Source: Spizellomyces punctatus DAOM BR117
Taxonomy: Eukaryota
Strand: one strand, 5' to 3'
Assembly (NCBI GenBank): GCA_000182565.2
Contig: KQ257456.1
DNA: 64,000 nt
Both the position numbers and the translations under genes were made by a program. Shown piece after piece: positions 11,114-55,970 of the stretch; positions within the stretch are counted from its first letter, which is position 1; the number at the start of each line of letters is the position of its first letter. The notes under the pieces were generated by a model. It worked only from the letters and a program-made list of their open reading frames with translations. It searched no databases and was not told the origin of the DNA.

Positions 11114-11568
11114 TTAGCTCTCACTACGGAAAGAGACACGTCTTCTGGTCCGCGAGACGTCCGGTTTGTCTACGCAATCAACAGAAGACGCTGCCAATTC
11201 AGCAATCAGTTGCTGCCGGGGTTTCCCATCGGAATGGCTAGTTGTAGAATCCGGGCCATTCAAGTTTTCATCGTGGCCGCCGACGTCTCTTCTTATCGTA
11301 CGGCTTCGTCTCCGTGATGTGCGTGCCGGCTGCCCTTCAGGCTTTTGGGTAAATCCTGCCGACCCTACTATTTCCCGGAAAAACGGTATTTGGTGCAGTA
11401 TGAGCTTCCAAGCAACAAACCAGACTTTAAAAAAAAGTGAGTTACAGGATACAACCCGAACTTCCAATCAATGTAATTACTCTTACCGAAACTTATGGTG
11501 GCACATAGAAGGGAAATAGAGCCCAAGAGCGTTATCGCCGTCCGCCCGGTTTCGAGTAGTGCGTCCAT
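11114..11568 (-). CDS. Small integral membrane protein, SMIM13/DUF4750-like (2 exons)
   Basis: MDALLETGRTAITLLGSISLLCATISF spliced to VWFVAWKLILHQIPFFREIVG, which resembles SMIM13 WYFVWHLFLSKFKFLRELVG. Basic, disordered tail. Confidence 0.6.
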
Positions 11569-11802
11569 GTTTCACTCTCACCCGGACAGCTGAAGTACTT
11601 CGACCAACCCTTATTACACTATCATGGAAACGATGCGCACACGTTCCTTAAGGCAGGCTGTTGATGATTCAACCAGCGGAGGTGCTTTGAAAGCCACGAC
11701 GAACACGACGGGTCATATGACCTAGACACGTGACTTCTCACTTTTTTTGGCTGCTTACAGGTTCCTTGTTTCTTGACCTCCCATCAACCTTCGACAATTA
11801 CA

Positions 11803-12252
11803 ATGGCGACCACAGTGAACCCCAAAGCCTTTCCTCTTGGTGAGTCCGAAGTATGCACCTTAACTAAAGTATACGAAGAGAAACTTATCGTTATTGTTCC
11901 TCTAGCCGATGCGCAACTCACAAACAAGATTCTCGATCTTGTCCAGCAAGCATCCCACTACAAGCAGCTGAAAAAGGGTGCCAACGAAGCCACAAAAACA
12001 CTCAACCGTGGTATCTCCGAGTTCATTGTCATGACGGCTGACACTGAACCCCTCGAAATTCTTCTCCACCTCCCCTTGCTCTGTGAAGATAAGAACGTCC
12101 CATACGTCTTCGTTCCATCCAAAACCGCTCTTGGCCGTGCATGTGGTGTTTCTCGACCAGTCGTTTCCTGCTCGGTCACTACAAACGAGGGATCTGAGCT
12201 TAAACCTCAGATCCAGGCGATTAAGAACGAAATTGAGCGTCTCTTGATCTAA
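11803..12252 (+). CDS. SNU13: Snu13/15.5K, L7Ae-family kink-turn-binding protein of U4/U6 and box C/D snoRNPs; intron 11840-11905
   Basis: [44 protein letters not shown]...[29 protein letters not shown]...IERLLI. Confidence 0.98.
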
Positions 12253-12312
12253 TGTCTCGTTGCGTATTTAACGTCCTATTGCATAGTTACATAGACACAT
12301 CATATTGCCCTT

Positions 12313-12440
12313 TGCCATGATGGTGTCATCCGGGAAATGCTCGTGGTTGCCGGGCAGCTTTTAGTCTTGGATAGCATCCTGAGCGTTAATGTACGTAGTT
12401 TCTAGCAATCATCTTCTCTCATGATCCTTAGGTGAAGAGG
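12313..12440 (+). promoter_or_regulatory. Two predicted box C/D-type kink-turns in the SNU13 3' UTR
   Basis: Both motifs have a C-stem, a 3-nt CAU bulge, tandem G.A/A.G pairs, a U.U pair and an NC stem (12313-12385 and 12415-12440). AATAAA follows at 12451. Confidence 0.6.
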
Positions 12441-12657
12441 TTGTATTTACAATAAAGGAAAGACTGAAGCGAAATGTTTCCAATAATTGCTTTGCTGATT
12501 TACGACGTTGTTGTTGATGGCGATCGTGCTTTGATAATCAGCTCTTCATAAACGAGCTCACGTGGACAAGCCAGTTTCGTAAGTTGCCAGAACGGCGCGA
12601 CCTTGTTGCTTTGGCCTTGCACCACGCACGCAACCGTTTGCCGGCTGAGAAGAGGAT

Positions 12658-15190
12658 ATGCATGCGTCGGTGGTAGAATCCATAGTAGCAGACGCGCACG
12701 TTGAGGTCCTGATTCCTGCAACGGATTCAACCGATGCAGAGGACATCTTGAAAGCCCCAGCCAGGGACACAGTGTTTTACGGTATGGTTGCAGTACATGC
12801 CTCCGGCTTGTCCCTCTTTTAGCACAGCTGACGTGGCTCAGCGCTCTCATAATATAAATATGCAGACGAGACTCTCCACTGCTATGTCCTATTCAAACCT
12901 TCTCAGGCGCCTAGTGCCTCGAAGGTAACTGCAGCGATGCTCACAGACATCGCCAGTCGCGGTTTGGATCTGCATGTAGTTGTCAGTATAGGCGACATTG
13001 ATGAAGCAGACTCTACGATCTCGGCCTTCTTGCCTGCTACCCCCAAAGCGGCTCCTCCCGCCCCACCGCCAGCTGCCCACCATTTGGGCGCGTTTCCACA
13101 TAGAAACCGTTCAGCAACCACCGGCCCTCCCGTCCCATTAAAAGGATCTCCAGCTCCTAATTCTTCTAATTCTGCTGGCTACTTAGCGAGCCCAGCACTA
13201 AAGAGGAGGACTACATCTTTGAAGTCTGGTCAGATCTCATTAGGGCCGCTGGAATCGCAACCTTTAAAGAGGTCGCCTTTGTCCTCAGCAGTTACACCTA
13301 CAACAGAAGCAAAAGATGAGGAGATTCTTTACTCTTTCGTGTATAACGCGGTGAATGGGGAACAAGAGCCGATTGTCTTACCGGAGCAGCGATGTTGTCT
13401 CTTTCCGCTACGACTTCCGATAGGTACCGCGCGACATTATTGGCTAGCATTTTGAGAGCTGTTCTGATGTTCAATATGTTTCGATTTGGCACCAGCAATC
13501 CTAAAAGCCAGATCAAAAGATATTGGATATAGTATAATCGTTAGAATTAGTTTGATATCCAAATCAACACAGCAGTCGCCACCCAGAATGCGAGACGCTG
13601 TCCTATGCGACCCCGAAGACTTCGATGCGCCAAATTTGCTGGCAGGTCTAGCAAATGGTGAGTCCGATTTCATATTTCATTTGGCTCTGGCCAGCCTAAT
13701 GAAGCCACGTATAGACACTTATTTTAATCCGGAGGGAATACCGGTACATCGTTTACCGAATCACCCCAAGCGACCTTCATTAACACCAGCAACGCCATTC
13801 CCACGTGTGATACAAAAATGCATCCCTGTTCAACCAATACTTGATATAACGATTAATATCGTTGACGCCGGCCTTGATAGTATGTTGATGTCACTGGCGC
13901 TAGAAAATAATGTTGGCGAGGATAGTGAATTTTGCATCGAGTCTCTGAATGTGAATATGACAAATGCTATCATTTCGCCTGTTGATGAGACTTCAATCAG
14001 GAGCGAACCGGTATGTTTGTCGTCATGGGCAATTCCATTGACTTTTCTTTTCTTAATGCTGGCCTCAACTTGTGTCTTTCCAGCTTAAAACACAGGATGA
14101 GCTCCACCTTCTCTACAATGTTGCATTACTTGAGGATGCTTGTAAGGAAACACCTGTAGAGAGCACCACAAGTCCACCCGGAAGTGCCATGACCTCTCGA
14201 ATGGCATCTTTCGCGTCATTAGGGACGGTCAAGTCCATTGGAGCCGTTATAACGCCAAGAATCAAGCGGCTACTTTCGATATCAATCAAGGGGACGAGCT
14301 CGCTCGCTGGCTCCCGCGGACAGGTTATCGGAGCTAAATGGTTCACCCAGCTTCTTTTTGGAGGTGATTCTGAGAGCAAAACGCTGTTGGACGTGGTGCC
14401 TTTATACGGAAGGAAGAATGCTATGCCGAAAGAAATCCGGATTTTGAATGAAAAAGAAGGAGACGGATTGCAACTCTCATTTTCCAGTGAGTTTAACGTG
14501 GGTTTTTTCCGATTATGTGTATCCTCAACAATGCCGTCTCTCTTTTTCTGATTGAAAACAGTTGCATCACAAGTATATCTCCGCCACATCTTCACCGTTC
14601 AGGCATTCTTTGTCAACCGCTCCACAAAGACGAGAAATTTGAACCTAATCATACCGACGAAAGCGACTCCTAGTGATACATCCGCCCCGTCCCTTACTCG
14701 GTTAGTAAAGAATAGCATGATTCAACAAGTTATTATTAAAATAGCTAACTTATAACTGTAAATGTCGACAATAGTAGTCATGACAGTGGAATCAATCTGC
14801 ATATGGAAGAGGAAGGTGCGTGCTGCAAAATATGCCCGATATCCGTAACCGACACTGATATGTTCCATCCAAAGAGTTTTTGAGACGCTACCTGGAAATG
14901 GAAAAGCGCGAAGCCTCGCTCGTATGCTTAGAGCATAGTATTCAGCTAAGGTACGTGGACATGGATACGGTTTTCGACGTGAACAGCCTGTCGCATCAGT
15001 GCTAATAAGCTGCTTGGTCATTCGAAGCGCACTCCATCCGAACACGTGTCAAACAGTCAATCTGCATTTTGTCGCTATTAAAGGATTAGTTCACACTATT
15101 GAAGATATACAGCTGATTGATAGAGACAGCGGGGGTGTTATGCATTTGCGAAATGTGTTGGAAATCCACGTCCTGAACCCAAATACATAG
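12658..15190 (+). CDS. TRS65: TRAPPII complex subunit Trs65/TRAPPC14-like (multi-exon)
   Basis: ATG at 12658 (MHASVVES...VEVLIP...RDTVFY|DETLHCYVLF, intron 12782-12865). C-terminal LHPNTCQTVNLHFVAIKGLVHTIEDIQLID is typical of the Trs65 C-terminal domain. Confidence 0.65.
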
Positions 15191-53821: not shown

Positions 53822-55970
53822 CACCTTCCATTCGCTGTTATGTTGGGTATCAAAGAGGAAAACTTGCTAGACGTTGACGGCCCGCGTACGATGCGAGTGG
53901 CAAGCCGACTCGCAAAAGAGGTTCTGAGTGTTTGTTCTATTATCCAGCCGTATGAAGAAAGACGGGTTGGGGGTGCAAAAAGTCAAAAAAAATGACAAAG
54001 ATGCTGTGCTTTGAGTCCGGAGCAAGCGGCGGAACAAGCCAAGTATGAAACTTGTAGCAAAACGGTCACGCCCTCGGGTTGAACCAAAAGTGTTCCCTAA
54101 AAGGTAAAAATGAGAACCAAAAGGCTTGAAATAGCAACAAGAACACATTTTATTACCAATACCTTTTTGACGTCGTTTTATTTCCTGCTGGTAAAACGCT
54201 CGTTATCGTTTTGTCGTCCTTCCCTTCAACTTGCTTCCGGTCGATGGAACCTGGGGTCAGGCTTTTTGTTTGCCTTGTCGTCGTTTTGTTTCATAGACCT
54301 CGTTTTACATTTACACAATTGTTGAAGGGGATTTATTACTAAGCCATCCTTCCTATCGCGTGACCTGTGTTGCCATGGCAGCTATTTTGCATAAAATGAG
54401 ATTCTCTTTTTCTTTTCCTTGTATTATTCCAGGGCCATCGCACACAATCTAAAAGGTACGTTGCACTTTCAACTCTATAGCTTGAGCCCCCTTCGTGAAG
54501 GGGGGTGACTCGGTTTGATGAGCAAAACCTCACAACACTGAAAATCTCGGACGAGGGGGGACAGAACGTCCTTCCTCCATGAGCGACCATAACTTCCTCT
54601 GAATATCGCATCGTGTACTCGACTTGAATTCCATTCAGAGTCGTAGCCTCTCAACTGACCTGTCTTTTTGTTTTCCTCTAGGTACACACACTGTAACCGG
54701 ACAAGGAGAGCCTGAACAAGCGAACGAGAAATGCCCGACCGCTTCTTCAGCTTAACTTGAGACCGGGCATATTACATGTGCATGTCTGGAGAGTATCACA
54801 GTGATTATATTGGTATCGTAACCGTTTTTTCGGAATGACGATTCAAAAACCCTACAACACTCTAATTTTTATATGAGTGGTACTCTCCTTGATGGGCGTC
54901 CAAGTGGGGTCATGCACTCTGTAGAATGCTCAGACCATCTGACTCTCACGCCCGTGCTTCAAGAAAGTCGTTGATGGATGTGACAGTCGTGGTTGGGTGC
55001 CTTGCAGAGTGTGCCGGTTGAGATGCCATTGAAGCACTTGTTTCAATTCTGTCGGCCCGGGGACGCTACGCTCGACCTGTTCATTTACAAACAAGAGGTA
55101 TGTCTCAACTTGCCCAACATGAGAGAGACACGCACACCTGCAATCCGGAATGATGCTGTGAAAATATATTCTGACAACCTCTTGTATAAGTCGAGAGTCA
55201 TGGCTCGGCGATGTGCACAAATTCCGACTGACTGGATTGTTTGTGTGTGGTGTCTCTCATGTTTTCTTTGAATGACATGGCGATGAGGACTCACTCTTTG
55301 TTCAAACAGAAACACAAAACATTCACTGGAATGATAAGGACACTCAGCGGCAGGTACATAAACAAGTGGATTGGCGTAATCCATTCATCATGGAACAAGT
55401 TTGGGTTCTGCGTATTTACGATCAGAGGCTTCCAACTCTAGTCCTGCGTACCCATCAGCCAGCGTTGCGAGCTTCTGATCTCACTACAATGAATCCAAAT
55501 TTACTGCCGCGAGGCAGATGTGACGTCTCCGCCGATGAATGGATTACGCCAATTTTATTAGATTACTAAAACTCGAATGTACCATCGCCCTGTATTCGAT
55601 TTTTTAATGTTATGTCAACATGAATTCCACCTACCAGTAACAACCATAACAAGCACACATCCTATTTCAAGAACAAGGTGGAAAGGTTCTTACCTTGAGC
55701 ATCACAAGGTGTATATATCTGAATACTTTCAATTGATATTGGACATAACCACCATAATGAAACCCCACAACTAGGCTGATGTGTAATATGCAGTCGAATG
55801 CGATCGTGCACGCTCCCCAATTATCTGGTGGAGCGGTTTATGAATTGGCTTGAAGGCACCGGTATCGTTATTAAGGTTCCAGTGGCTTATGATTCTACGA
55901 CTATGAACAACGGACTGATGCGCATCCGGCACTCTGATTTACTCTGAACTGAGGTCTATGGTAATAATTT

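Follow-up and report, generated by a model that had tools for sequence, protein, structure and literature searches.

The 3′ UTR of the SNU13/15.5K gene of Spizellomyces punctatus DAOM BR117 holds two Snu13-type k-turns beside the poly(A) site that is used, and this pair is a real, non-random feature of the sequence. Feedback of some kind by Snu13 through the k-turns in its own mRNA is probable, both binding and regulation being inferred. The best guess for the step regulated, by analogy with U1A, is a block to 3′ processing, to which we would give a little less than an even chance.

The interest of such a circuit lies in the position of Snu13/15.5K, a shared component of the U4/U6.U5 tri-snRNP, U3, and every box C/D snoRNP; through its free level, splicing and ribosome production are coupled. 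The literature searched gives no answer as to how this level is set. A k-turn in its own mRNA would provide a direct mechanism and would extend the archaeal L7Ae loop to the eukaryotes; if this is true, the 3′ version would exemplify how an RNA motif can shift from one end of an mRNA to the other and come to control a different step. In the literature searched, which consisted mostly of the main texts of open papers, we found no description of a k-turn in the SNU13 mRNA of any eukaryote; two fungal RNA-motif screens do not name snu13 in their main text (PMC5640933, PMC8216456), and the available parts of two further papers make no mention of the element (PMC12510878, PMC4624896). The 5′ counterpart in the SNU13 of other eukaryotes, yeast included, is apparently unreported; a prior description is possible.

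The window analysed is a stretch of 64,000 nucleotides of contig KQ257456.1 (assembly GCA_000182565.2). The gene 5′ of the k-turns is SNU13/15.5K (domain profile match to PF01248, E 2.5e-27), and its product resembles human 15.5K and yeast Snu13p far more than archaeal L7Ae or Nhp2: the closest solved structure is that of human 15.5K (E 1e-56), with yeast Snu13p at 5e-54 and archaeal L7Ae at about 1e-24. The region is single-copy in the genome (24.1 Mb, 38 contigs), and exon 2 alone has no exact protein match. The features of the gene are as follows.

11803..11839, + strand: SNU13/15.5K coding exon 1, with the ATG at 11803, joined to exon 2 in reads
11840..11905, + strand: SNU13 coding intron, 66 nt, GT..AG, skipped by a read joint and with an open frame throughout
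11906..12252, + strand: SNU13 coding exon 2, ending in TAA at 12250-52 and without an in-frame UGA
12253..12474, + strand: SNU13 3′ UTR, 222 nt up to the main cleavage site, from sense-strand read depth
12451..12456, + strand: AATAAA poly(A) signal, with tails starting 15-18 nt downstream
12471..12486, + strand: cleavage/poly(A) sites, the main one at 12474 (12471-74 being ambiguous) and a minor one at 12486

The splice between the two exons was seen in contigs of two runs and in one read of an RNA run with the same species label; the intron is in frame and stop-free, and if it were retained, the protein would gain 22 residues close to its N terminus. The RNA data for the 3′ UTR come from one raw run with the same species label, a poly(A)-end library with strongly 3′-biased reads of at most 60 nt, of which about 6 in 100 reads were sampled and 1287 placed; reads from a soil run reach only 11797-12135 and those of another run only 35 nt, and neither informs on the 3′ UTR. 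In this single run, the SNU13 transcript is well polyadenylated. The sense-strand depth is 159-246 over 12226-12453 (246 at 12340-96 and 184 at 12397-453) and 0 beyond 12510, and untemplated A tails with a median length of 15-16 nt are carried by 52 reads at 12474 and by nine at 12486, the main site having only three A’s templated by the genome. The AATAAA reported at 12451 in the preliminary description is therefore not only present but in use, and, since the mapped poly(A) sites lie 3′ of both k-turns, both belong to the mature mRNA.

Around the gene, CACGTGAC followed by a T run at 11737-11756, just upstream of SNU13, is probably a promoter element; the CACGTG in it, which we take to be an E-box, also precedes SNU13 at three other loci (L003, L016, and L018). 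A well expressed transcript on the − strand (11200-11427, depth up to 46, no long ORF listed) diverges from the SNU13 promoter region, and an 84-nt GT..AG intron in the downstream gene (12781-12864) is supported by one contig.

The two k-turns are the following.

12313..12385, + strand: K-turn 1, with C helix 12313-15/12383-85, bulge CAU, GA at 12319-20 and 12381-82, U.U, then G-C and G-C
12415..12440, + strand: K-turn 2, with a 5-bp C helix, bulge CAU, tandem G.A/A.G, U.U, two C-G pairs, and loop UUA

Both have the standard layout, in which a 3-nt bulge and then tandem G.A/A.G pairs lie between the C helix and the NC helix; in K-turn 1, a long irregular hairpin is closed by a nearly canonical pair of boxes, box C being AUGAUGG and box D CUGA. 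On re-reading of the sequence, the layout first proposed for K-turn 2 was exact in every position: TCTCT at 12415-19 faces AGAGG at 12436-40, the bulge CAT is at 12420-22, and the core consists of GA at 12423-24 and 12434-35, U.U at 12425/12433, CC/GG at 12426-27/12431-32, and the loop TTA. The CAU bulge with U at L3 and the U.U after the G.A pairs are among the features selected in SELEX experiments with Snu13p, which, in the part of that study available, favoured U.U and left helix length unrestricted (PMC1874613).

How rare such motifs are was estimated with a scanner, the strict rule of which describes a box C/D-type k-turn (L2 a purine and L3 a U, with tandem GA and U.U; two Watson-Crick pairs in the NC helix and three pairs in the C helix; a span of up to 80). 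This rule is modelled on the box C/D consensus and was written after the motifs had been seen, which makes the loose-rule figure the safer one. Over both strands of the whole window, the strict rule has four matches, two of them in the SNU13 3′ UTR; in these 222 nt, 0.0025 would be expected from a background of six per 527,556 nt of the same genome (P 3e-6). Under the loosest rule, which has 223 background matches, two in the UTR have a P of 0.004 (6 of 5000 shuffles). A k-turn of the quality of K-turn 2, with a C helix of at least 5 bp and a span of at most 20, occurs neither in the 527,556 nt nor in 5000 UTR shuffles. This rarity is due to the C helix, the hairpin half alone being common: by our own count, it has 79 pattern matches genome-wide, 17 of them with complementary inner pairs. 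As controls, the relaxed setting recovers the U4 k-turn of this genome, and the strict setting finds two snoRNA-like elements. Scattered single matches occur in the NOP56, NOP58, PRP31, fibrillarin, L30, NHP2, S12, and L7a loci of this genome; as a further instance of the same element, none is convincing except an intronic snoRNA-like one (L084). In this genome, the L7a/L8-like gene is followed, beyond its stop and at about 1885-1920 of L086, by a weak k-turn-like match with a 3-bp C helix, which may be due to chance.

The preliminary description had seen in the 3′ UTR a Snu13-type k-turn beside a poly(A) signal and had suggested autoregulation; this is the likely purpose, and the idea is made much stronger by the k-turns found upstream of SNU13 in orthologues. 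A metagenome scan gave at least 548 SNU13-like stretches among at least 590, and the best 80 of these (at least 548) were kept and collapsed to 59 loci by flank similarity; for each, the upstream zone was the 450 nt before the match and the 3′ zone the 300 nt after the stop, against a background of 267,525 nt of flanks. With rule S1 (short k-turn hairpins with any 3b.3n pair), there were eight matches upstream of SNU13, where 0.17 were expected, and one after the stop, where 0.13 were expected. Rule G1, which was widened after inspection (3b.3n A.C or U.U, U or G at L3, loop on either helix), gave 29 upstream matches in 28 of the 59 loci as against 1.67 expected, and none of the 59 had a match in the 3′ zone; when the same upstream zones were read in antisense, one locus matched. 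Rule G3, which allows any 3b.3n pair, gave 27 upstream matches in 24 loci (5.27 expected), with six antisense and with four in the 3′ zones, where 3.97 were expected. These rules were tuned after the data had been seen, and the loci are linked by descent, so the 28 carriers do not amount to 28 independent cases; one G1 match (L036) lies inside coding sequence and is probably due to chance. In the 5′ region of the SNU13 gene studied here (11400-11810), rules G1-G3 or looser find no k-turn.

The carriers, L021 and 26 further loci, range over ascomycetes, basidiomycetes, animals (insects and copepods), and green algae. Among ten loci looked up, proteins identical to known Snu13 were those of S. 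cerevisiae (L021), Brettanomyces (L010), and Malassezia (L003), and others fell in protein clusters of beetles (L076), copepods (L030), and Ostreococcus (L069). At the S. cerevisiae-type locus, the k-turn is at about 1372-1430 and the ATG at 1465, with the bulge side 45 nt upstream of the start codon; across the 16 loci measured, the distance from bulge to ATG is 26-130 nt, and it is by this position that the k-turns are called leader k-turns. The loop is on the C helix in the ascomycete-like and algal copies and on the NC helix in the Malassezia-like and animal copies. Apparent nested double k-turns were found by eye in animal-like leaders (L007:560-610, L027 at about 1365-1410, and L030:1398-1445), and variant leader k-turns, also by eye, at L024, L025, L027, and L044. 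No k-turn was found at diatom-like, plant-like, and several further loci, nor at L002 and L029; it is with these last two, the former Neocallimastix by protein name, that the SNU13 studied here groups in a protein tree of 61 rows (support 94/90, unstarred), a placement that makes an early-diverging fungus likely, and in neither of these nearest rows was a 3′ k-turn found.

K-turn 2 aligns column for column with the 5′-leader k-turns of ten other SNU13 loci, which are NC-loop copies, the nearest being the U.U-type copies of L003, L016, L018, and L047. In this alignment, 86% of cells pair and all seven pairs change on both sides; the covariation is 0.76, as against 0.21 when shuffled and at most 0.14 when slid, figures that are partly circular since the rows were chosen for pairing. 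Rfam searches of the window and of 28 among the 80 related loci gave no relevant family; one match in the window (E=8, in the coding intron/exon) is at chance level, and at L029 it gives a tRNA with an overlapping sub-threshold match. A eukaryote-like SNU13 contig in a bacterial assembly (L125:215-265) has a k-turn candidate, with U.G at 3b.3n, just after the stop and is, besides a weak case in L033, the only other notable 3′ case. The prokaryote genomes gave five loci (three in archaeal and two in bacterial assemblies) and no close fungus, the two in bacterial assemblies looking like stray eukaryotic contigs; viral contigs gave no SNU13 relative with a 3′ UTR.

Folding predictions bear on how the sites might work, and two further predicted pairings are involved.

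12440..12453, + strand: predicted small A-U-rich hairpin, possible once K-turn 2 is in register, covering the AAU of AAUAAA
12261..12274, + strand: competing strand that pairs with about 12383-12398 in whole-UTR folds

The free RNA of K-turn 2 is predicted to take a slipped register in which the bulge is paired (−6.9 versus −1.8 kcal/mol in the k-turn register). The local ensemble cost of forming the kinks is put at 6.6 kcal/mol for K-turn 1 (10.8 within the whole UTR) and 7.4 kcal/mol for K-turn 2, values at the high end of those of 15 other SNU13 copies (1.3-9.1 kcal/mol), which counts against easy binding. According to the folding rules, in the parts of these sources available, k-turns with no C at 3b or G at 3n, and often no C:G at −1, are unfolded without protein (PMC6298567, PMC4382518). 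K-turn 2, with its U.U and U-A pairs, is thus predicted not to fold without protein, as the archaeal switch requires, which is what a secondary, excess-sensing site would need. The stability of the folds gives no signal relative to shuffles (z-score −0.35 for the UTR and +0.07 for K-turn 2). Forcing K-turn 2 is predicted to release 12440-44 to pair with 12449-53: the probabilities that the AAU is unpaired go from 0.62/0.88/0.54 to 0.05/0.09/0.16 when a 4-bp C helix is forced, but only to 0.28/0.46/0.87 when all five C-helix pairs are forced, and the hairpin over AAUAAA, being weak and dependent on the constraint, is suggestive only. The strand at 12261-12274 is predicted to compete with the C helix of K-turn 1 and to cover GUACGU; this pairing is possibly due to chance, the UTR having a z-score of −0.35.

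We propose the following model, which as a whole has slightly worse than even prospects of being right. K-turn 1 and K-turn 2 would be low-affinity sites for Snu13 in its own mRNA, the free RNA being in a non-kinked register, and only the Snu13 left after U4 and the box C/D snoRNAs are filled would bind and fold the kinks. Snu13 bound 10 nt upstream of AAUAAA, this being the gap between the signal and K-turn 2, would most likely hinder cleavage and polyadenylation, either sterically or via the small hairpin closing over AAUAAA; the transcript would then decay in the nucleus, and the output of Snu13 would fall. The 3′-UTR k-turns would thereby be the 3′ form of an element that many eukaryotes hold in the 5′ leader of SNU13. 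Two observations weigh against the model: polyadenylation of the transcript is good in the single RNA run, and under rule G1 the 3′ position is confined to this genome, with no such match among the 59 other loci. If the probability of feedback as a whole is divided by step, 3′-end formation takes the largest part, translation or decay a much smaller one, snoRNP nucleation a slightly smaller one again, and splicing with NMD very little.

This last step had been advanced on the grounds of a possible intron in the 3′ UTR.

12391..12431, + strand: proposed 41-nt intron, with the splice pattern present and its use unsupported

The GTACGT at 12391, the branch-like CTCAT, and the TAG at 12429-31, which places the acceptor in the loop of K-turn 2, do exist, and the intron would indeed be short (41 nt, as against 66 and 84 nt for the two introns supported by reads). 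These two start with GTGAGT and GTATGG and not with GTACGT, which the preliminary description gives as the form used by other introns. Comparable donor, branch, and acceptor patterns appear in 6-9% of controls, namely in 105 of 1800 genomic windows of 222 nt and in 454 of 5000 UTR shuffles. No joint of 12390 to 12432 was called at depths of 246 and 184, though the coding intron 11840-11905 was detected; with a threshold of three reads from two starts, only the joints of the coding intron and of 12780/12865 were called, 141 weaker loose ends being below it. Given a detection limit of a few percent in short 3′-biased reads from a sample with NMD left uninhibited, the intron is used in at most a few percent of transcripts at steady state, and it can be discarded as a common isoform, a rare NMD-sensitive one below that level being possible. 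A switch in which Snu13 binding controls this intron, whose removal triggers NMD, is accordingly very improbable, even though an NMD target would be scarce among the reads and mammalian 15.5K-bound K-loops suppress the excision of host introns, as the available text has it (10.64898/2026.08.03.742641). Besides the missing junction, the chance-level pattern, and the shortness of the intron, the donor is predicted to be paired in the whole-UTR fold, and binding would hide the branch and the acceptor, thus blocking the NMD splice and giving a positive instead of a negative loop.

A related question is whether K-turn 1 is part of a snoRNA. Relative to the box C/D consensus RUGAUGA/CUGA, K-turn 1 (AUGAUGG/CUGA) nearly fits and K-turn 2 (AUGAUCC/GUGA) does not. 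The longest perfect rRNA complement in K-turn 1 is 8 nt, and 956 of 1000 shuffles have one as long (the LSU target being without its 5′ part); with this chance-level complement and no Rfam family, K-turn 1 was rejected as a guide snoRNA. The control for this search is an unannotated box C/D snoRNA-like element at 54788-54888 (+ strand), below the Rfam gathering threshold, which has a 12-bp terminal stem, a C/D k-turn, and, at 54856-70, just before the D-like box, a 15-nt perfect complement to the SSU rRNA of this genome. Two other box C/D snoRNA-like elements were noted, one with a 12-bp terminal stem in the S12-like ribosomal protein locus (L084:1956-2052) and one at about 3545-3640 of L107.

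If Snu13 does act through these k-turns, the step need not be 3′-end formation. Snu13 is located mainly in the nucleus, which is against an action at a later step, where it would stay on the mature mRNA and, from the 3′ UTR, lower translation or speed cytoplasmic decay. Both k-turns are within the polyadenylated mRNA, and the 5′-leader versions elsewhere, like the archaeal ones, point to translational control; moreover, the accessible portion of one study has k-turns repressing translation in mammalian reporters, two more than one (PMC3711428), but these were in 5′ UTRs, and a 3′ site cannot block scanning. We consider such a later step unlikely. Somewhat less likely still is the nucleation of a snoRNP, in which K-turn 1 would seed Nop58, Nop56, and fibrillarin, and the transcript would be retained in the nucleus or processed by trimming, as snoRNAs are, thus sensing assembly capacity. 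The box C (6/7) and exact box D of K-turn 1, about 60 nt apart, have a snoRNA-like size, and there is a precedent in SNORD86 in NOP56, at least in the text available (PMC8162545, PMC7038934); what speaks against it is that K-turn 1 has neither an rRNA guide nor an Rfam match, that the first stem II pair of K-turn 2 is inverted relative to box C/D, and that no read ends pile up at the boxes, a weak point with a poly(A)-end library.

That the motifs are due to chance or are functionless relics has about the same low probability, perhaps a shade lower. The lack of a 3′ copy under rule G1 in the 59 other loci, a UTR that folds no better than its shuffles, the 17 occurrences of the hairpin half, and k-turn-like matches of similar strictness elsewhere in this genome, at the loci of further genes such as L086 and L088, would all fit this explanation; it has difficulty with the low probability of two k-turns in this UTR (P 3e-6 under the strict rule and 0.004 under the loosest), with a gene whose own product binds such motifs, and with orthologues that carry the motif upstream. 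There is very little to recommend a reader from elsewhere in the L7Ae family (L30, Nhp2, or an SBP2-like protein), acting for example on a SECIS-like element. The genome has five L7Ae-family loci, none of them SBP2-like in the exons translated; SBP2 is able to bind k-turns in which a U protrudes and a U.U pair is present but, again in the part available, favours an internal loop and, as fourth pair, a purine-pyrimidine one, which is absent from K-turn 2; the protruding base favoured by L30 is A or C (PMC1874613). Since the SNU13 gene is also without an in-frame UGA, a SECIS element was rejected.

A block to 3′-end formation, the reading that we prefer, has its nearest model in U1A, which blocks its own polyadenylation through two 3′-UTR sites (PMC6884704, available part). 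In both cases, the mRNA of an snRNP protein has in its 3′ UTR a pair of sites for that protein, close to the poly(A) site. U1A is an RRM protein with a motif that inhibits poly(A) polymerase; the likeness of Snu13 is drawn from the arrangement of the sites. A conserved distance to the poly(A) site, as for U1A, was not found, none of the 59 other loci having a G1 match in the 3′ zone. Box C/D-type motifs acting in cis on their host transcript are also known, in the accessible texts, from SNORD86, which gives feedback on the snoRNP protein NOP56 (PMC8162545, PMC7038934), and from 15.5K-bound klRNAs, which act on host introns in a report whose available part mentions neither SNU13 nor a UTR (10.64898/2026.08.03.742641). 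Those elements are intronic and act on splicing, whereas the present ones are exonic, belong to the very mRNA that encodes the k-turn binder, and retain a C helix. In form, K-turn 2 is like the 5′ stem-loop of U4 snRNA, with the bulged strand first, a very short NC helix, and a small loop (span 11 versus 12 for U4 in this genome), and differs from it at two pairs: next to the G.A pairs it has U.U where U4 has a Watson-Crick pair, and before the bulge it has U-A where U4 has C-G.

Within the L7Ae family itself, archaeal L7Ae represses its own translation via a 5′-UTR k-turn, and yeast L30e regulates its own transcript, as stated in the available part of PMC5539422. Another paralogue of the family that binds a k-turn in its own RNA is alike to that extent; its k-turn has a protruding A rather than U and sits at the 5′ end of the transcript, and the splicing branch is unsupported here. 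The archaeal loop is closer, as far as the available texts go, since an orthologous family has a weak k-turn in the protein’s own mRNA (PMC5539422, PMC6298567), with a sequence predicted not to fold without protein and with the loop on either helix according to lineage (three and three), just as both polarities occur among the eukaryotic leaders. The present case differs in being eukaryotic, known from sequence, and in two copies, with no ribosome binding site to hide, and in having its k-turns in the 3′ UTR rather than in the 5′ leader, the position that, in other eukaryotes, the k-turns of SNU13 do occupy. It is conceivable, though we hold it to be less probable than the 3′-end block as such, that the circuit was kept from archaeal L7Ae across the eukaryotes, with its k-turn persisting in the SNU13 leader of S. 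cerevisiae, and that, in this early-diverging fungus, it moved to the 3′ end, was doubled, and switched from translation to a block of 3′-end formation.
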